From a virus, in the UHGV virus genome UHGV-0234394: DNA of 36,353 nucleotides. One strand, 5' to 3'. The notes under the pieces are model-generated. The model was not told where the DNA came from and ran no database searches. It was given only the letters and a program-made list of their open reading frames with translations. Positions 8,359 through 35,128 of the stretch are shown in pieces. The translations under genes were made by a program, and so were the position numbers. The stretch's first letter is position 1. Every line of letters starts with the position of its first letter.

Positions 8359-8766
8359 TTAAATATAATCTTCTTCGTAGTCGCTGATTAATTCATTGCC
8401 ATAATCAGACAGCAATTTCAAAGCAAAGGTAACTTCCTCAAGGGTAGCTATCCCCATTGCTGAAAACACCGTTAATTTAACCAGCAGCAGGGAGTTTGAA
8501 AGTTCGGAAGAGTTCATCATTAAAAATATTGATGCAGCCTGAAAAGCTGTGCGTTTATTCCCATCATGAAAGGCATGAGCCTTGGCTATACCAATCAAAT
8601 ACATAGCAGCCAGAGCATGAATATCATCAACCCCTTCATAGTAGTGTAGTGTCCTGACGCGATTTAAAGCACCTTCAAGTAGCCCGTCATTGGCATTTCC
8701 GCTCTGGGGTAAAGTTTCAGCATGGATACGTTCTACTTGTTCTTTTGACAAAAACACTATGTCCAT
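8359..8766 (-). CDS. Doc/Fic-family toxin (death-on-curing type)
   Basis: 135 aa with Doc-type motif HAFHDGNKRTA; start overlaps the stop of the upstream antitoxin gene; AT-rich. Confidence 0.8.
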   Translation of the reverse strand: MDIVFLSKEQVERIHAETLPQSGNANDGLLEGALNRVRTLHYYEGVDDIHALAAMYLIGIAKAHAFHDGNKRTAFQAASIFLMMNSSELSNSLLLVKLTVFSAMGIATLEEVTFALKLLSDYGNELISDYEEDYI

Positions 8767-9122
8767 CAGTTATCCTCAAGCTTTTTAATGATATCCGCAT
8801 GTTTTTCTCTTGTACGCTTCATTGCATCTTCAAAAGACAATCCTTTTTTTCTCTGTGCGACAAGAGCTGGATGACGTTTTTCCAGATCTCTCACTGCATT
8901 TATTAAGAGTGGTTGCTTCATTTTGTTTATTTGATCCCGCAGTTTTTTGGTTTTGCCAAGGACAGCCCGTATTTCAGGACTAAGATCAGAACCAGCAAGA
9001 ACAACATCCTTCCCTCCCTGCGCAGTGATAACGACACTGCCACCGGAAGAAAGGTAATCCAGAATTTCACTCAGGTTCTCACGAAATTCATCATCAGTTA
9101 CAGTTTTCATATTCATTTCCAT
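8766..9122 (-). CDS. Phd/YefM-like antitoxin
   Basis: 118 aa; N-terminal region (FRENLSEILDYLSSGGSVVITAQGGKDVVL) has the Phd/YefM pattern; first gene of the two-gene operon. Confidence 0.65.
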   Translation of the reverse strand: MEMNMKTVTDDEFRENLSEILDYLSSGGSVVITAQGGKDVVLAGSDLSPEIRAVLGKTKKLRDQINKMKQPLLINAVRDLEKRHPALVAQRKKGLSFEDAMKRTREKHADIIKKLEDN

Positions 9123-9197
9123 TATGCACGCCCATAACGTAAGTATAACGGCTTGTTGGGCAGTAATAACACCGCCATATTTTCATTTTATACACCG

Positions 9198-9223
9198 CAC
9201 AATAGTGCACAAATTTGCACAAT
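9198..9223. promoter_or_regulatory. three 10-bp phased GCACAA repeats, candidate operator over the TA promoter
   Basis: GCACAA at 9198-9203, 9208-9213, 9218-9223; on the minus strand these overlap a -35-like TTGTGC followed by TATAAAAT. Confidence 0.45.
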
Positions 9224-9239
9224 TTTTTTGAACAACTTT

Positions 9240-9350
9240 TTACCCTTCCGGCCCGCGTGGCGACTGGATCCGTCAGGGATCCGTGCGTGCACAAAAAAAC
9301 GCGTTTTTTCTGCGCGCAGGTGACGGGGGAACAGCCCGCGTTTCAGGGGG
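9240..9350. other. candidate cos region
   Basis: GC-rich segment between the A-side accessory genes and the packaging genes; ggtgacgggggaacagc (9319-9335) and gcgtggcg (about 9250) resemble the P2/186 cohesive-end sequences as recalled; A7CGCGT6 palindrome at about 9292-9308. Confidence 0.3.
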
Positions 9351-9721
9351 TAAATAGCATTCCCTGAACGATGTCGCAGAGACACAACAGAATGGCCATA
9401 TTTCTCACGCTGAGCATGAAAAAGGCGTGAGGGCTTTTGATTTGATGGGGTGAAAGGTAAGGCCGTCAAAATCGCACTGAGGCAGCGAGAACATACAGTC
9501 AACGCGGTGGAATTGCGTAAGAGTCTGACCGTCGATGGTGGCGATAAACTGGAAGGCGTCGTGAAATTATCTGATTGATACAGGAGCTGGAGAGCCGGGG
9601 CATAAATTTTTTATGCCCCGGCGAAGCAGCAGACAAGCGAAGCGCGTCAGCGATACGGCACCTTGCCGACCATACTTCATAAGTGCAAAATACGAGCAAA
9701 GAAATCAATGGAGGCTGTCTT

Positions 9722-10246
9722 ATGGTCATTAATTACAAGCAGTTAAGAGAAAAACGGGAGCAGGTAAAGGAGAGCTTTCGCCGCAATGAAGATCTGACCC
9801 CGCTTGTACGCCTTGCCCAGGGCATTGTTGATGCTTATGAAATCTCGCTGGAGCTGCCATCACAGACCTGGACAGATAGCGACGGTAATCGCCAGCATTA
9901 CGTTTCATGCGGACTGGAAGCAGCCGAAGGATTTCGCAGAATGCCTTTATCCCAGATCCCTGCCGCTACCCCCAAAGCATGGGGCAGCAATGATGAGCGA
10001 AAACTGACTTTTAGTATTGAAACGGTGGTTGACGACACACCTGGCGAAGTCGCGTTCGTACACACTCCTGTTTCGATCGCAATGTATAACGATGAAATAC
10101 AGGTTCGCGTTAATAATAATATCGTGCCACTTAAAGAAGGTAATTCACCCTACACCACCGTTTGTGAAGCCATTCAATATTACGTTCTCTCTGAAATTGA
10201 TAATCTCAAGCCTGACGGCACCCAGAAAATGGTTCAACTCTGGTAA
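9722..10246 (+). CDS. hypothetical protein (174 aa), accessory gene of unknown function
   Basis: Track ORF 9683..10246; ATG at 9722 has GGAGG 7 nt upstream; no recognisable motif; ends at a bidirectional terminator. Confidence 0.6.
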   Translation: MVINYKQLREKREQVKESFRRNEDLTPLVRLAQGIVDAYEISLELPSQTWTDSDGNRQHYVSCGLEAAEGFRRMPLSQIPAATPKAWGSNDERKLTFSIETVVDDTPGEVAFVHTPVSIAMYNDEIQVRVNNNIVPLKEGNSPYTTVCEAIQYYVLSEIDNLKPDGTQKMVQLW

Positions 10247-20059: not shown

Positions 20060-20942
20060 CCTGTCGGAACTGCCGACACCACAGATTATTGAAACGCCGG
20101 ATTTTGAAGTCATCCTGGCGGAGGTGAAAGAAAGCATGATTACGGCATTCCCGCAGACACAACAGGCTGCCGTCCGGTCAGCCATGGCGCTGGAGTCCGA
20201 ACCGCTCACGGTCATCGCTCAGGCATTTGCACTGCGTGAGTTGCTACTTCGCCAGCGAATTAATGAAGGGGCAGCGGCCTGTATGCTGAGCCATTCCACA
20301 GGTGACGACCTGGATAACCTCGCCGCCAACATGAACACCGCGCGACTGGTCATCACACCGGCCACGGACACCGCGGAGGCCGTCATGGAAAGCGACACAG
20401 CCCTGCGGCTGCGTGCACAGTCTGCGTTTGATGGCCTCAGCGTGGCCGGTCCCACCGGGGCGTATGAATATTTTGCCCGCAGTGCCAGCGGTCAGGTGGC
20501 GGACGCACGCGCTACCAGCCCCGCACCGGCGGAAGTGGTGGTGGCGGTGCTGTCCACGGAAGGCGACGGTACGGCGACCGAAGCACTCCTGACGACGGTC
20601 AGAAATGCGCTGAATGCCGAAGACGTTCGCCCGGTCGGTGACCGTCTGACGGTGCAGAGCGCAGAAATCATCCGGTATCAGATTGATGCCCGGCTTTACT
20701 TTTATCCGGGGCCGGAGTCGGAACCTATCCTGAATGCCGCCAGAAACAATCTGGAAACCTGGCTTGCCGAACAGGGCAAAATCGGTCGCGATGTGGCGCT
20801 TTCCGCCATCATGGCCGCGCTGCATGTTCAGGGCGTTCAGCGCGTGGAACTGACCAGCCCCGCACAGAATATTGTTATCAGTGATGTGCAGTCAGCGTAC
20901 TGCACATCGTTTTCGGTCAGCGCAGGGGGAACCAATGAGTGA
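20046..20942 (+). CDS. J: baseplate protein J
   Basis: 298 aa, close to P2 J length; position. Confidence 0.8.
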   Translation: MPAVDLSELPTPQIIETPDFEVILAEVKESMITAFPQTQQAAVRSAMALESEPLTVIAQAFALRELLLRQRINEGAAACMLSHSTGDDLDNLAANMNTARLVITPATDTAEAVMESDTALRLRAQSAFDGLSVAGPTGAYEYFARSASGQVADARATSPAPAEVVVAVLSTEGDGTATEALLTTVRNALNAEDVRPVGDRLTVQSAEIIRYQIDARLYFYPGPESEPILNAARNNLETWLAEQGKIGRDVALSAIMAALHVQGVQRVELTSPAQNIVISDVQSAYCTSFSVSAGGTNE

Positions 20943-21474
20943 ACCGTCACTTCTCCCCCCTTCAGCCAGCGATTTCATGCGCTGCGTGGAGCGGGGGGCT
21001 ACCCGGTTGTCAGCATTACCTGTCAGCCTTAATCAGCTCTGGGATCCTGACACCTGCCCGGTGGCCCTGCTGCCTTATCTGGCGTGGGCGCTGTCCGTGG
21101 ACAGGTGGGATCGTGACTGGACGGAAGAAACAAAGCGCCAGGTGATCCGTGATGCCTGGGCAATCCACCGCCATAAGGGAACCATCAGCGCCATCAGGCG
21201 TGTGGTTGAACCCTTTGGCTATGTCATTAACGTGACGGAATGGTGGGAAACCGGCGATCCGCGAGGGACTTTCCGGCTGGACATCGGTGTACTGGATACC
21301 GGTATCTCCGCTGCGACCTATACCGAGCTGGAGCGCCTCATCGATGATGCCCGCCCGGTGAGTCGCCATCTTACCGGATTAAATATTGTGCAGGACATTT
21401 ACGGGGATGTGTACGCCGGCGGGGCGGTATTTTGCGGCGACACTATTGAGGTTTATCCGGGAGAGGTTGTCTGA
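20935..21474 (+). CDS. I: tail protein I
   Basis: Track ORF 20872..21474; ATG at 20935 overlaps J stop; about 179 aa as P2 I. Confidence 0.75.
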   Translation: MSEPSLLPPSASDFMRCVERGATRLSALPVSLNQLWDPDTCPVALLPYLAWALSVDRWDRDWTEETKRQVIRDAWAIHRHKGTISAIRRVVEPFGYVINVTEWWETGDPRGTFRLDIGVLDTGISAATYTELERLIDDARPVSRHLTGLNIVQDIYGDVYAGGAVFCGDTIEVYPGEVV

Positions 21475-24778: not shown

Positions 24779-25093
24779 CAGAAGTATTTAAATGGCACCA
24801 GATGTAATATGCAGGCGATTAATATGGTGTGCTTAAAGATCATAAAAGCGGGCAACATTAAAACTCTGGGCTGTGTAAATTACCGCCACTCATAATCAGA
24901 GATGAAAACAGAATTAAACTGGCGGCGTGGATTGTATACATAAAATAAGTTCAGTTGTTGACTTTCACTTCCGTGAGTTGATGAGGGTTATTACAATACA
25001 CCGGTATGATCTCTCCTCCTTAAAAGGGAGGACTTTTCAGAACGCAGAAATTATTTATAATCCCGTAGTGTTCTACACATGCCAACATTCTTT

Positions 25094-25118
25094 GCCCGCC
25101 CCGTGCGGGCTTTTTTTT
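25094..25118 (+). terminator. intrinsic terminator in a non-coding island
   Basis: gcccgc-cccgt-gcgggc followed by T8. Confidence 0.6.
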
Positions 25119-25208
25119 GCCATAAAGACACAGTAACAAACAGAATTGTAATCAGAGCAATAAAATCATGAAAAACATTTTCATTGATGACGATAACAAT
25201 TAAAAATA

Positions 25209-25238
25209 TTGCATTAAATGATTCCCGTTCAATATAAT
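25209..25238 (+). promoter_or_regulatory. sigma70-like promoter (TTGCAT-18-TATAAT)
   Basis: -35 at 25209-25214, -10 at 25233-25238. Confidence 0.45.
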
Positions 25239-25244
25239 CCCCCT

Positions 25245-25305
25245 GCAACCAGAAAAATTAAATCTTCACACAATGCATGTTGCCCTCTTTATGAGGGCTT
25301 TTTTA
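25245..25305 (+). ncRNA. candidate small RNA (about 60 nt) between promoter and terminator
   Basis: Promoter above followed about 45 nt later by hairpin gccctc/gagggc (25282-25298) and T-run; no credible ORF with SD. Confidence 0.3.
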
Positions 25306-25397
25306 TTTCCCGAATATCACCATTGCCATCATCGGGCGATTTATATATAGTCAGAATGTATTGACAACATTTTGCTTCTTTTCCATGAAGGCCATAA

Positions 25398-25427
25398 GGG
25401 AGTGCTTTTTACACTCCCTCTTTTTTT
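25398..25427 (+). terminator. intrinsic terminator abutting the 3' end of U
   Basis: gggagtg-loop-cactccc followed by TCTTTTTTT. Confidence 0.5.
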
Positions 25428-25429
25428 AT

Positions 25430-25894
25430 TCAGAATGCCGCTGTCGCCATTTTGTCTTTAAGCGTGTTCAGTAATTCGCCCGCAGAAGCAGACTGAAACC
25501 TCTCCCTCATATCCTCATCACACCGCTGAAAGCTGATGGAGAACTCAATCTTTTTTGCCTTTCCGTAACGATCCAGTTCGGAGCGGGTGGTCTGTAATCC
25601 CGTAATCACGTACATTCCGTAAATCTGCCCCGTGCCATCAATCAGCGGCCAGGGACATCCTGTGTAGGCCTGGGTGTTCAGTAGTGTCAGCGACACCTCA
25701 CCGCCGGTAATTTCCGGGTACAGCAAACCGGACAGCGTGATCTGGTCATCACCTGCACCGATATACTGCCAGGCTGCAGAGCGGTTAATGCGCTCATTTT
25801 TCACATGTCGCCATGTTTTGCTCTGCTGGATCTGCTGATGCGGCAGCGTGCGCAGCTCAAAAACAAACATGCCGTAGATCATCATCATGGTCAT
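25430..25894 (-). CDS. U: tail protein U
   Basis: 154 aa; size and position next to the tape measure as in P2. Confidence 0.75.
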   Translation of the reverse strand: MTMMMIYGMFVFELRTLPHQQIQQSKTWRHVKNERINRSAAWQYIGAGDDQITLSGLLYPEITGGEVSLTLLNTQAYTGCPWPLIDGTGQIYGMYVITGLQTTRSELDRYGKAKKIEFSISFQRCDEDMRERFQSASAGELLNTLKDKMATAAF

Positions 25895-30982: not shown

Positions 30983-31139
30983 AGCTTCAGCCCCTTGTAT
31001 CCGTTAAATGATTCGGCAACAATCATCACCCACCACGCGCGTAATCTCACCCCTGCGCCGTTCTTCCGACCCAGAGACAACAAAAAGCAGTAACCCCCTC
31101 CGCACGCACATGCGACCATGCCGCACAGGGAGGGAACAG

Positions 31140-32249
31140 ATGACCGACACCACCATGCAATTGCTCAGTCAGAGCACAGACCCCGTGAAAATGCCGGATT
31201 TTGATATTCTCGCGGAGGGTAAAACGCTGTCAGGCGTGGCAGAGCGCCTGATGAGCCTGTCACTGACCGACAACCGGGGATTTGAGGCGGACCAGCTCAC
31301 CATCACGCTGGATGATGCGGATGGTCAGTTGCAGCTACCGCCACGGGGCGCGCGCCTGACGGTTCTCATTGGCTGGAAAGGAGAACCGCTGACAGAAAAA
31401 GGCACTTACATTGTTGATGAAATCGCTCACGAAGGACCGCCGGACAGGCTGACTGTTTCAGCCAGAAGCGCAGATTTTCGGGATGAATTTAACGTTAAAC
31501 GTGAGGTGTCCTGGCATGATGTGACCGTTGAGCGTGTGGTATCCGCCATCGCTCATCGGTATGGTCTGAAACCGCAAATCAGCGAAATGCTGATGGATAT
31601 CGAAATCGACCACGCCGACCAGACCGAAGAAAGCGACATGTCCTTCCTTACGCGCATGGCGGAAATGCTGGGCGCAATCACCACGGTAAAAAGCGGTAAT
31701 CTGTTATTCATCATGCCCGGCGGTGGCGTGAACGCGCAGGGCCAGCCGTTGCCATCGTTTGCCATCACACGCAGCAGCGGCGATCGCCATCAGTTCCGCA
31801 TTGCTGACCGCGAAGCGTATACGGGGGTACGCGCTTACTGGCTTGATCTTAATTACGGGAAAAAGAAAAAAGTCAGCGTGAAACGCCGCAAACCGCCAAA
31901 ACCCAAAAAGGAGAAAAGCAGCAGCCGTGAAGGTGATTATATGGAAGGCGCGGAAGGCAATGTGTTTGTGTTACGCAAGACCTATCAGAACGAACAGGCA
32001 GCAAGACGCGCAGCGGCGGCAAAGTGGCAGCAGCTACAACGCGGAGCCGCATCATTTTCCATCACGCTGGCGCGTGGACGTGCAGAACTCTACCCCGAAA
32101 TGCATGGCACGGTAACAGGATTTAAAAGCGAGATTGATAATCAGGACTGGATTATTGCGAAAGCCGAGCACACCATTGATAACAGTGGCTTTACCACGCA
32201 GCTTGAGCTTGAAGCAAAAATTCCGGAATGGATCGTAGAAACAGAATGA
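31140..32249 (+). CDS. D: tail/late-control protein D
   Basis: Track ORF 31008..32249; ATG at 31140 with GGAGGG upstream; about 369 aa; position before ogr as in P2. Confidence 0.8.
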   Translation: MTDTTMQLLSQSTDPVKMPDFDILAEGKTLSGVAERLMSLSLTDNRGFEADQLTITLDDADGQLQLPPRGARLTVLIGWKGEPLTEKGTYIVDEIAHEGPPDRLTVSARSADFRDEFNVKREVSWHDVTVERVVSAIAHRYGLKPQISEMLMDIEIDHADQTEESDMSFLTRMAEMLGAITTVKSGNLLFIMPGGGVNAQGQPLPSFAITRSSGDRHQFRIADREAYTGVRAYWLDLNYGKKKKVSVKRRKPPKPKKEKSSSREGDYMEGAEGNVFVLRKTYQNEQAARRAAAAKWQQLQRGAASFSITLARGRAELYPEMHGTVTGFKSEIDNQDWIIAKAEHTIDNSGFTTQLELEAKIPEWIVETE

Positions 32250-32371
32250 GTAAATTAGATGCATTAGCTCAGTCATGAGTTTACTGATTACGTACGGCAC
32301 AGAAGCAGACCTGATAGTTTGCTCTGTGCCAGAAACGGACATTGCCGACATCATAATCGACACAAATTACA

Positions 32372-33157
32372 TCAATCACCTATGTGATTACGTTCTATAT
32401 ATCTTACAATCTTCTCTAAAGATTCAAATCCCCACCTCTGCATAGCATGTGGGAATTCTGTATATTCATAATCTTCTATGGTGAGATCCCATGTACTTTT
32501 CTTGAATTCACACTGATATAATCGCACAGTCTTGTTTAAAACCAACCCTTCTAACACACTGCTTTTCTTAATGATTTTGTCAATGTCTTTATTGTTAATC
32601 CCAATGTAGATAGCTGTTACCGAACTTAAATCAGTTATCTTGTCAATTAAAATATTTTCTTGCTTTTGTAATAGCCCCACTCGCTTTATTATTCTAACTT
32701 CTTCTTCATATTTCCAATGCAATGATTTAGTAAGCAATAATTTACTAATTACATCAGCGCTATAAATGTTTTCTTGACTGATTTTTAGTTTACTTTTTAT
32801 TCGACTCTCTAAATAATTAATGTCACCTTTCTGTGCCGTAATTAGGCATTTTTCTTCATCATCAAACCCTGCCCTTTCTGTGTCAATTGCTACAACAAAC
32901 CCCTGATGTTTATCAGCATAATGTGACCACATCAGTACATTGAGAGGATTTTTAGAAAGGCATAAGCAGGCAACATTTTGATTGATCTCCCCCCTCATAG
33001 CTAATGGTTCAAGCGATTCACCATCTAATGAAAGTTCATAGCCATAGCTTTCAAAAGGATCATTAAACTCACTATATGGAGTGAATTTTATAGAGATGTA
33101 ACCATCTTTAAAAAATCGTTCCAATGATGTCTTATCTATATATTTATACAGAATCAT
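32372..33157 (-). CDS. AT-rich accessory protein of unknown function (about 261 aa), N-terminal LYKY motif
   Basis: Track ORF 32372..33208 begins with TTG; first ATG gives MILYKYIDKTSLERFF; strongly AT-rich versus flanking D and ogr; convergent with D. Confidence 0.6.
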   Translation of the reverse strand: MILYKYIDKTSLERFFKDGYISIKFTPYSEFNDPFESYGYELSLDGESLEPLAMRGEINQNVACLCLSKNPLNVLMWSHYADKHQGFVVAIDTERAGFDDEEKCLITAQKGDINYLESRIKSKLKISQENIYSADVISKLLLTKSLHWKYEEEVRIIKRVGLLQKQENILIDKITDLSSVTAIYIGINNKDIDKIIKKSSVLEGLVLNKTVRLYQCEFKKSTWDLTIEDYEYTEFPHAMQRWGFESLEKIVRYIERNHIGD

Positions 33158-33352
33158 AATATATTCAGAATTAATTATAGGTGTTATCAGTATACAGTAC
33201 TTCAACAAGTAGATGTAAAGATCCCATTTAAACGTTCCTCCTCAATACGCGGATTAAACAAATTAAAGCATCTTACTCAAAATGGACCATCAGTTGGATT
33301 TAGAGCCAACACAACCTAGAATAGCGGCAGCACCACGTTAAGGGAGGTCGCT

Positions 33353-33613
33353 ATGTTCCGTTGTCCGCTTTGTGGCGCATCTGCCCGTATCCGCACCAGT
33401 CGTCCGGAAAATGATTCAAACACCGTGCGACAAAAGTATTACCAGTGCAACAACCTGGAATGCGGCGTATGCTTCTCAACACTGGAAGCTTTCCATAAAT
33501 TCACATCGAAACACGCCTCCGGCGTTCACTCTTCAGAAGGTATCCCGTGGCATGAGCTGCCAGCTTCACACAGGGGAAACAATCAGATGAGTTTGCCTTT
33601 ACCTCAGAATTAA
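33353..33613 (+). CDS. ogr: late transcription activator, Ogr/Delta zinc-finger family
   Basis: MFRCPLCG...YYQCNNLECG four-Cys pattern as in P2 Ogr; GGGAGG SD. Confidence 0.85.
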   Translation: MFRCPLCGASARIRTSRPENDSNTVRQKYYQCNNLECGVCFSTLEAFHKFTSKHASGVHSSEGIPWHELPASHRGNNQMSLPLPQN

Positions 33614-33701
33614 CAGGCAGAATTGCCGGAGTAACAAAAAAGCGATAGATTACGCGCGGGTGCCTTTCGGCTGATGGTCGGAGGGAATACCCGAAGGCCA
33701 G

Positions 33702-33938
33702 ATGTGGAAAGGCCCCGGAAAACATTTCTGTTTAACCGAGGCCCTAACACTTCTTACCTTCGCAAGTAGAAGGTTAGCGCCTCTCCTCTCAGGAGACAAG
33801 CGTTATGACGCAAATTCCGTTAAAAACCCTGTTACTTTGCATAACTGCGGTAGCGATAATCTGGATCCTCCACACATCACCGTGCGAGTTACGATTCAGG
33901 TTTGCTGGCACGGAAATTGCGGCATTCTTACTATGTAA
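33702..33938 (+). CDS. mok: mok-like leader ORF overlapping hok
   Basis: 78-codon ORF in a different frame spanning nearly all of the hok-like gene, the arrangement seen in hok/sok loci. Confidence 0.45.
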   Translation: MWKGPGKHFCLTEALTLLTFASRRLAPLLSGDKRYDANSVKNPVTLHNCGSDNLDPPHITVRVTIQVCWHGNCGILTM

Positions 33939-33945
33939 TAAGTAA
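33805..33945 (+). CDS. hok: Hok/Gef-family type I toxin (46 aa)
   Basis: MTQIPLKTLLLCITAVAIIWILHTSPCELRFRFAGTEIAAFLLCNK: TM helix plus the conserved C-E-(I/L)-R...E-(V/I)-A-A-F core of Hok/Gef; AGGAGA SD 8 nt upstream. Confidence 0.8.
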   Translation: MTQIPLKTLLLCITAVAIIWILHTSPCELRFRFAGTEIAAFLLCNK

Positions 33946-34147: not shown

Positions 34148-34194
34148 GATTTGTTATCATATCGGCAGCAGTAACCACACAAGAGGTGCCGCAA

Positions 34195-34392
34195 ATGACG
34201 CAAAATGTACGATGCAAAAATTGCAACAAACTACTTGCCCGCGCCTCATTTCACTACATTGAAATAAAATGTCCGCGCTGCAAAACACTTAACCAGATAA
34301 CGAGAGCCATCGAGCACCCCACACACATGAGGAGTTATGACCGTGGGGATCGCAATCCAGCACCAACCAGCACATACACCGGAACACACTAA
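34195..34392 (+). CDS. com: Com-like zinc-finger translational regulator
   Basis: MTQNVRCKNCNKLLARASFHYIEIKCPRCK...EHPT closely parallels Mu Com (RCKNCNKLL, IEIRCPRCK, EHPT); AAGAGG SD; 3' end overlaps the methyltransferase start. Confidence 0.8.
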   Translation: MTQNVRCKNCNKLLARASFHYIEIKCPRCKTLNQITRAIEHPTHMRSYDRGDRNPAPTSTYTGTH

Positions 34393-35128
34393 GGTTTATC
34401 AGACTGACAATGCCACGCTCTGTCGTGGGAATGCGCTGGAAATATTGCCGCTGATTGAGCCAGAAAGCATTGATGCCTTAATCACTGACCCGCCTTACAG
34501 TTCGGGTGCGACACACAAGGCCGGACGCACCAACCAGGGCAGCCATGCAAAATATCTGAACGGCGAGAACCTTCACCGCTTTGATGGGTTCGCGGGTGAA
34601 AACATGGACGCCCGTTCGTGGGCTTACTGGACACAATTATGGATGGCACAGGCACACCGCGCAGTCAGGCCGGGCGGTTATGCCCTGGTATTTACTGACT
34701 GGCGACAACTACCAGCTTTAACCGATGCGTTTCAGGCCAGTGGCTTTACATGGCGCGGCATCATTGCGTGGAACAAAGGGAGGGGGTCACGAACACCACA
34801 TACCGGGTATTTCCGGCATCAGTGCGAATACATCGTCTGGGGCAGCAAAGGCCATTTAGATAAATCGCCTTCGGGACCGTTCGACGGCTGCATGACGTTC
34901 CCGGTTATCTCGTCAAAGAAAATGCACCCGACCGGAAAACCAGAAGAACTAATGGCGGAACTGGTCAGGACTGTGAATAGTGGCGGAACAGTCCTTGATC
35001 CTTTTATGGGGTCAGGGACAACGGGTGTGGCTGCACTGAAAGCAGGACGCAAATTTATTGGTATAGAAACCAGTGATCATTATTTTGATGTAGCAACACA
35101 ACGGCTCAAAACGGCGATCGAACCATAA
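34337..35128 (+). CDS. DNA methyltransferase, beta-class (DPPY before FxGSGT), N6-adenine or N4-cytosine
   Basis: ITDPPYSS near the N-terminus and LDPFMGSGTTGVAAL near the C-terminus; alternative GTG start at 34343 has better SD spacing. Confidence 0.8.
   Translation: MTVGIAIQHQPAHTPEHTKVYQTDNATLCRGNALEILPLIEPESIDALITDPPYSSGATHKAGRTNQGSHAKYLNGENLHRFDGFAGENMDARSWAYWTQLWMAQAHRAVRPGGYALVFTDWRQLPALTDAFQASGFTWRGIIAWNKGRGSRTPHTGYFRHQCEYIVWGSKGHLDKSPSGPFDGCMTFPVISSKKMHPTGKPEELMAELVRTVNSGGTVLDPFMGSGTTGVAALKAGRKFIGIETSDHYFDVATQRLKTAIEP

Follow-up and report, generated by a model that had tools for sequence, protein, structure and literature searches.

DUF2971 proteins are found in about 6,000 species (PMC12522546), and just one member of the family, in Lactococcus, has been experimentally tested. 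This protein, Aristaios (pUCCL641_199; Grafakou et al. 2024), has 316 aa, is encoded on a Lactococcus plasmid and forms an antiphage system of one gene, with an abortive-infection (Abi) type of action and a predicted ADP-ribosyltransferase (ART) fold (PMC11381338). It prevents phage transcription and hence the production of structural proteins (PMC13064643, PMC12967558), and its resistance was all-or-none, so escape mutants were not sought (PMC12184496). Here we describe a DUF2971 gene in the UHGV virus genome UHGV-0234394, a stretch of 36,353 nucleotides that we refer to as a whole as the window. The gene sits on the minus strand of a P2-like prophage, in a slot between the tail gene D and the late activator gene ogr, and encodes a protein with a predicted ART fold. 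By analogy with Aristaios, we consider it fairly probable that it provides a lysogeny-expressed, single-gene Abi defence of the Aristaios/PDC-S31 type.

The two proteins are alike in their DUF2971 domain and predicted ART fold. They differ in that Aristaios has a Gram-positive host and a plasmid carrier, against a P2-like prophage here, and the measured Abi phenotype is that of Aristaios alone. Identity between them is probably low, and the likeness is drawn through the descriptions of domain and fold; tblastn against a plasmid collection gave no lactococcal match among the plasmid matches listed. A defence phenotype for the window gene would thus be taken over from the literature on this one distant relative. 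PDC-S31 is a computational defence candidate in PADLOC that lacks published validation and was not mentioned in the literature that we searched. The window protein matches all five of its profile hidden Markov models (HMMs) and shares its single-gene architecture without an obligatory partner. A literature search on enterobacterial DUF2971 proteins returned no work.

DarT, the single-stranded DNA ART of the DarTG phage defence system, gave the best structural matches to our model, and the families placed nearest to DUF2971 in published work are DarT, AbiGi and Tox-ART-HYD1 (PMC12522546). The presumed logic is also the same, namely an NAD+-dependent modification that would stop phage macromolecular synthesis. 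The window gene differs in having no DarG macrodomain antitoxin and no Pfam DarT match, in being flanked by D and ogr, and in encoding a Lys in motif I, extra helical inserts and a variable C-terminal region of ~100 aa. Because there is neither a DarG nor sequence membership of DarT, the gene is not DarTG. Another ART, CmdT of the toxin–antitoxin–chaperone system CmdTAC (PD-T4-9), ADP-ribosylates mRNA, blocks phage gene expression and is cargo of P2-like hotspots. The likeness here is an ART effector carried as hotspot cargo of a P2-like prophage; the difference is that CmdTAC comprises three genes in the gpA–Q or Z/fun hotspots, whereas the DUF2971 gene stands alone. PADLOC 2.0 includes PD-T4-9 models, and the protein is not a detectable relative of CmdT because its PADLOC match is to PDC-S31 only.

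A DUF2971 protein with a predicted ART fold

The open reading frame (ORF) of the preliminary description, 278 aa counted from a TTG at 33208, is real and its stop end at 32372 was right. The TTG start gives way to an ATG at 33157, which is almost certainly the true start and yields a product of 261 aa beginning MILYKYIDK. This start is favoured because homologues are ~260 aa long (almost all of the best 120), because the M-I-L-Y-K-Y N-terminus is near-invariant, and because the RefSeq annotation of the identical gene in Escherichia coli E110019 spans 786 bp from an ATG.

Assignment to DUF2971, first proposed from an LYKY-type motif, was borne out by HMM search: PF11185 matched residues 76–156 with 44.4 bits against a cutoff of 22 (E = 4.5e-11), covering model positions 1–89 of 89, and the domain was present in all 120 listed homologues. 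The LYKY motif (Y4, K5, Y6) is real and invariant in the family, and lies outside the Pfam model. In alignment A1, which comprises 64 homologues with identities as low as 27%, the invariant residues are Y4 and K5; N32, D33, P34 and F35; M76, W77, H79 and Y80; and K144, W148, Y150, E151, E153 and R155. All four DUF2971 signatures, LY[HK]Y, FNDPFE, MWSHYA and W.YE.E.R, are present. The five PDC-S31 HMMs matched with E-values of 5.6e-27, 9.2e-22, 3.5e-17, 1.1e-9 and 1.1e-6, jointly spanning residues 1–228, and the protein also matched phrog_1762, a phage protein family of unknown function (E = 7.8e-57). No NCBIfam model matched. At E <= 1, the Pfam scan yielded nothing beyond DUF2971 and a spurious AfaD, with neither DarT nor Tpt1 among the hits, and PADLOC yielded no family other than PDC-S31.

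The preliminary description did not foresee an ART fold. AlphaFold2 with alignment A1 returned a confident model (mean pLDDT 89.4, pTM 0.85) in which the split β-sheet core of ARTs is present, and we therefore predict that the protein belongs to the ART fold class. The best structural matches were DarT structures (7yk3, 7omu, 7omv and 8baq); to judge from the model, the nearest structural relatives are DarT and Tpt1. A profile search of A1 against PDB sequences gave no match even at E <= 10, so there is no sequence-level bridge to either. Two of the three ART motifs were found in their usual form. Motif II is represented by the invariant Y80, on the helix that follows core strand two, and motif III by the invariant E151-x-E153 at a strand start, with E153 opening strand 153–159. 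At motif I, the His or Arg is replaced by an invariant, non-canonical Lys (K5 of LYKY, on the first strand, residues 2–7). These features agree with the published description of DUF2971, in which the motif I His is poorly conserved, the Tyr strictly conserved and an ExE motif present, and in which a Lys is reported for a related family (PMC12522546).

An ART-like fold could serve another chemistry, or none, and Tpt1 is among the structural neighbours of the model. The protein might be a Tpt1/KptA-like RNA 2'-phosphotransferase, an RNA-end modifier, an NAD+ glycohydrolase or a pseudo-enzyme limited to binding NAD+ or nucleic acid; each of these could still act in defence. We think this unlikely. 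An ExE motif together with a strictly conserved Tyr is a hallmark of transferase-competent ARTs, and Tpt1 has no catalytic Glu. The absence of a Tpt1 match in the Pfam scan and the published proximity to DarT, AbiGi and Tox-ART-HYD1 argue in the same direction.

Conservation is unevenly distributed along the protein. The N-terminal 160 residues, which hold all motifs, are 67% identical to close and 39% identical to distant relatives; for the C-terminal 100 residues, these values drop to 44% and 16%, and the last ~20 residues are found in 38% of members.

The D–ogr junction and its cargo

We identify the window as a P88-like (Xuanwuvirus, Peduoviridae; 'P2-like') prophage. Across the 2.1 kb that were aligned, it shares 99.7% identity with a prophage of E. 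coli E110019. The integrase lies at the left end, and ogr is followed by hok/sok, a Com-like gene, a DNA methyltransferase and the host gene flk. In phage Chuche the junction is empty, with 42 bp separating D and ogr. In phage P88, ~1.06 kb is also missing and no gene is annotated between the two. The insert in the window is bracketed by an imperfect short repeat (left AAATTAGA, right AACCTAGA). The DUF2971 gene is convergent with D and divergent from ogr, and is conspicuously AT-rich against the GC-balanced structural genes (GC 0.29–0.37, versus 0.53–0.57 in D and the tail genes), both as initially described. In 400-bp bins, no block of the window is lower in GC: its bins have 0.31 and 0.34, and those next in order have 0.38 and 0.41.

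We determined how common the gene is among 5,426 complete E. coli genomes. It was present in 16, compared with ~1,200 that carry the D/ogr backbone. At least one uninterrupted D–ogr junction was seen in 720 of the 1,202 backbone genomes, and in ~40% the junction was seen only in an occupied or rearranged state; this share is a rough one, since several such prophages occur together in some genomes. The gene thus shows presence/absence polymorphism at a fixed site between core genes where other strains have unrelated cargo. The proposal that it is a moron is upheld: the empty junctions, the unrelated cargo and the 16 carriers against ~1,200 backbones show that it is not a conserved core gene of these phages, and no housekeeping match was found. 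All inspected copies occupy the D–ogr slot. Their carriers integrate at two sites, either at flk, with the com/methylase module, or at ihfA, without it, and this combination of one slot with two integration sites shows that the cassette has passed from one related phage to another without leaving its slot. The E110019 assembly also includes a 25,421-bp record (NZ_CP035755.1) with a second, unannotated DUF2971 copy at 20632–21412 (99.1% identical), which might stem from an excised piece of phage, from another prophage or from an artefact of the assembly.

Homologues outside these prophages are carried by other mobile elements. In Serratia sp. PAMC26656 (L013:1-6804), a homologue with 78% identity belongs to a P4-like satellite (Delta, AlpA, Ash, DUF5375, primase), where it directly follows the primase, a position known as a secondary P4 defence hotspot (NAR 2026). 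The same cassette is therefore common to a helper-type phage and a satellite. Enterobacter copies (77%) are found in an integrase/AlpA/DUF927 island at smpB, beside an AAA_15/AAA_21 ATPase, and Klebsiella copies (58%) in a chromosomal island that has a different AAA_15/AAA_21 ATPase. Other homologues lie in plasmid-like contexts or beside unannotated, possibly phage-derived genes. Translated searches identified the wider family on 765 plasmids of the plasmid collection. Among deposited phages, such searches found it only in temperate, plasmid-like or satellite-like elements, namely SSU5-type phage-plasmids, a 35-kb Pseudomonas phage and 13–15-kb Vibrio elements. Distant DUF2971 homologues (29–43%; H131, H134-H137, H92-H103, H119-H120) are common on ~103–120-kb elements of Klebsiella, Enterobacter, Salmonella and E. 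coli, which include phage SSU5 and ~106.7-kb Salmonella plasmids and resemble SSU5-type phage-plasmids.

Nucleotide homology across these contexts is limited to ~70 bp upstream of the gene, the gene itself and ~55 bp downstream; in blastn comparisons of the cassette with the homologue loci, its 5' limit lies 67–77 bp upstream of the ATG (L013, L015 and L017/18). The insert holds no second gene, and no partner gene was shared among the three other contexts examined. Because the shared sequence covers the gene and short flanks only, and the neighbouring ORFs are unrelated, the mobile unit is a small cassette of one gene that has no partner and brings along a 5' region of its own. Candidate partners were considered and rejected. 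Small ORFs upstream of the Klebsiella, E. cloacae and K. aerogenes homologues are mutually unrelated and absent from the window. A 103-aa ORF immediately downstream, at 32052–32363 (minus strand), considered as a partner or antitoxin, is mostly antisense to the conserved D and lies outside the shared cassette, and was discarded as spurious.

The conserved 5' flank contains a perfect TATAAT at 33179–33174, and a TATAA[T/A] box is conserved across contexts. This flank, together with the deviant composition and opposite orientation of the gene, is what would be expected of an independent transcription unit, while promoter-like sites occurred at chance level. Scans for promoters and terminators gave no signal above shuffled expectation, and since the promoter scan did not exceed chance, the flank is a putative promoter. 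Between the stop codons of D and the DUF2971 gene, the RNA fold predicted a stable hairpin (GGCACAGAG...CUUCUGUGCC), which the terminator scan did not call. The surrounding 121 nt (32255–32375, minus strand) fold with −38.2 kcal/mol (z = −3.6), and none of 200 shuffled sequences was equally stable. The hairpin has no U-tract and is possibly a bidirectional terminator or an insulator. Rfam found no match in the cassette. The DUF2971 ATG has no obvious Shine–Dalgarno sequence. A strong one (GAGGAGGAA, 33243–33235) serves an 18-codon ORF (ATG 33227, stop 33171, minus strand) that is read in a different frame from the DUF2971 gene and stops 14 nt short of the latter's ATG. We rejected this ORF as part of the system: it is found at the margin of the conserved cassette, whose other contexts show no conservation of it.

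Eight other cargo types were seen in the D–ogr slot of other E. coli prophages, with seven proteins listed in Table 1. The SEC-C domain of one of them is also that of the validated lactococcal system Rugutis. PADLOC scans of the eight alternative cargo proteins gave no convincing match; the label of a defence hotspot would therefore draw on the PIN, HEPN-like and SEC-C content and on analogy. Since only DUF2971 among the cargo convincingly matches PADLOC, hotspot maps built on recognised systems would under-count this slot. Known defence hotspots of P2-like phages include gpA–Q (old/tin), the Z/fun site among the tail genes and lesser sites close to int (Rousset 2022; NAR 2026). As in old/tin and Z/fun, unrelated and often AT-rich cassettes of defence type are swapped at a fixed slot between core genes; the difference is that the slot here is D–ogr. 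The accessible portions of the P2-hotspot literature that we found (Rousset 2022; Egorov 2024; NAR 2026 gkag898) do not name this junction.

Candidate functions

The preliminary description had proposed a role in either abortive infection or superinfection exclusion. The first of these gains from the PDC-S31 match and from Aristaios, and strict superinfection exclusion, in the sense of an entry block, is less likely. In the Abi reading that we favour, the gene is a horizontally acquired, self-contained moron in the variable D–ogr slot, which the lysogen would express from the gene's own promoter. Expression might be low or damped by H-NS, as the GC content of 31–34% suggests silencing; H-NS silencing has been proposed generally for AT-rich immunity loci in a 2026 preprint. 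Infection by a heterologous phage would then activate the protein. It may use NAD+ to ADP-ribosylate nucleic acid, like its nearest structural relatives, DarT and Tpt1, or the transcription or translation machinery, like ExE protein ARTs. Phage gene expression would be stopped at the expense of the infected cell, and the clonal population and its resident prophage would be protected. The conserved N-terminal ~160 residues would form the catalytic core, and the fast-diverging C-terminal ~100 residues may be a module for sensing, autoinhibition or specificity. Sensing or autoinhibition by the C-terminus would explain the missing antitoxin.

Three rival explanations together take up most of what this reading leaves over. 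Beside the other chemistry discussed above, the protein might be an ART that benefits the phage through host takeover or counter-defence. Phage T4 uses Alt, ModA and ModB to ADP-ribosylate host RNA polymerase and other targets. The ART fold class, the carriage by a phage, the recurrence of phrog_1762 in phage genomes and the ExE motif, which is typical of arginine-specific protein ARTs (R-S-E clade), would all suit such a role. However, the gene lies in an AT-rich cassette of its own and is transcribed in the direction opposite to the late genes, and most related phages lack it and are evidently viable. Near-identical cassettes in non-phage islands and in the P4-like satellite hotspot also argue against a benefit to the phage, as does the absence of any recognisable virulent phage among the phage-collection homologues. 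A structural search of BFVD found no match to viral ARTs. We thus give a phage-serving role only a small chance. A function outside phage defence, as a selfish toxin, as an addiction module or as an effector in virulence or between bacteria, is equally improbable: ~18% of DUF2971 proteins are predicted effectors (Legionella ART survey) and the window matches the E110019 prophage, but this protein is a stand-alone one of 261 aa with no Pfam-detectable Rhs, PAAR or polymorphic-toxin N-terminus (a signal peptide was not specifically searched for), no immunity or antitoxin gene is conserved beside it in any context, those contexts are mobile-element cargo slots beside defence-type ATPases and not secretion loci, and the sole experimentally tested family member is an antiphage system.

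Other features of the window and implications

The boundaries of the slot, the cassette and the remaining annotated features are listed in Table 1. Gene D probably begins at an ATG near 31140 (MTDTTMQLL) within the longest ORF, as the ~366 aa annotated in P88 and Chuche are equivalent to a start there. At this gene (L005:2747-3600), RefSeq gives just a 266-aa 'VgrG/Pvc8 family' protein and an overlapping pseudogene fragment.

Table 1. Positions of the DUF2971 cassette, its flanks, alternative cargo of the D–ogr slot and other features. Positions refer to the window unless preceded by the label of another locus.
Feature	Position	Strand	Basis or remark
Tail gene D, left boundary of the slot	31008..32249	+	ORF; relatives annotate tail protein / late control D
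AT-rich inserted cassette, ~1.06 kb, versus empty D–ogr junction of Chuche	32260..33320		Pairwise alignments with Chuche (L004); composition
Stable hairpin between D and DUF2971 stop codons	32295..32331		RNA fold
DUF2971 / PDC-S31 gene, 261 aa, predicted ART fold	32372..33157	-	ATG 33157, stop ends 32372
In-frame TTG extension, 17 codons, probably untranslated	33158..33208	-	Homologue lengths, N-terminus alignment, RefSeq start
Conserved 5' flank, ~70 bp, putative own promoter	33158..33233	-	blastn of cassette against homologue loci
ogr/Delta-type zinc-finger late activator, right boundary of the slot	33353..33613	+	ORF; ogr/Delta-like zinc finger annotation in identical prophages
PIN_4 protein, 500 aa	L021:7826-9328		D–ogr slot cargo
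SEC-C-motif (YecA-family) protein, 379 aa	L022:7991-9130		D–ogr slot cargo
DUF3800 protein, 389 aa	L007:1692-2861		D–ogr slot cargo
340-aa protein	L008:1721-2743		D–ogr slot cargo; weak HEPN_RiboL-PSP match below Pfam cutoff
221-aa protein	L006:1795-2460		D–ogr slot cargo; no domain match
384-aa protein	L009:1719-2873		D–ogr slot cargo; no domain match
132-aa protein	L003:2908-3306		D–ogr slot cargo; no domain match
Fic/Doc toxin	8359-8766	-	Pfam E = 3.5e-11; weak PADLOC PDC-S23
Phd/YefM-like antitoxin	8766-9122	-	E = 7.8e-7, just under Pfam cutoff
Unknown ORFs past the Phd/Doc pair	9188-9502, 9499-9729, 9683-10246	-, -, +	
hok/sok-type module past ogr	33658-33945	+	Hok/Gef peptide 33805-33945, Pfam E = 2.5e-8
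Mu Com-like zinc-finger gene overlapping start of N6/N4 DNA methyltransferase	34186-35128	+	PADLOC MTase_II E = 2.5e-63

Elsewhere in the window, the gpA–Q hotspot holds a Phd/Doc-type toxin–antitoxin pair (8359–9122, minus strand). The second most AT-rich stretch (24800–25430, GC 0.38–0.41) is situated between the tail-fibre region and gpU, contains only short ORFs without domain matches and may be a degenerate or empty accessory slot of the Z/fun type. The hok/sok-type module, whose Rfam sok match (33658–33816) scored 47.4 bits, below the gathering score of 59, is kept in all related prophages inspected. The com/methyltransferase pair lies at the right prophage end, adjoining host flk. It is present in Chuche and in E110019-type prophages and is missing from ihfA-integrated relatives with the same DUF2971 cassette.

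The family, the label of candidate defence, one validated relative and the habit of this phage group to carry cargo are already known, and the gene is a further example. It extends the known themes of P2 hotspots, ART-based immunity and cargo exchange between P2 and P4 and overturns none of them. The D–ogr junction is a cargo slot rich in unannotated genes that can be mined for new defence systems. More tentatively, D–ogr in P88-like (Xuanwuvirus/Gemsvirus) prophages may be a substantial, not explicitly described defence hotspot whose cargo is mostly missed by defence finders, with the DUF2971 protein as a self-restrained, antitoxin-free ART that has a Lys in motif I and would modify nucleic acid when its C-terminus senses infection; we regard this combined reading as possible but doubtful. 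The 261-aa stand-alone E. coli version would be a convenient model, since standard coliphage panels can be applied, phages such as Chuche offer an isogenic empty slot and the genetics is simple. The key questions are how an antitoxin-free ART stays harmless until infection and what it modifies. If the combined hotspot and ART reading is true, the gene would open a family present in ~6,000 species to genetic study in E. coli.
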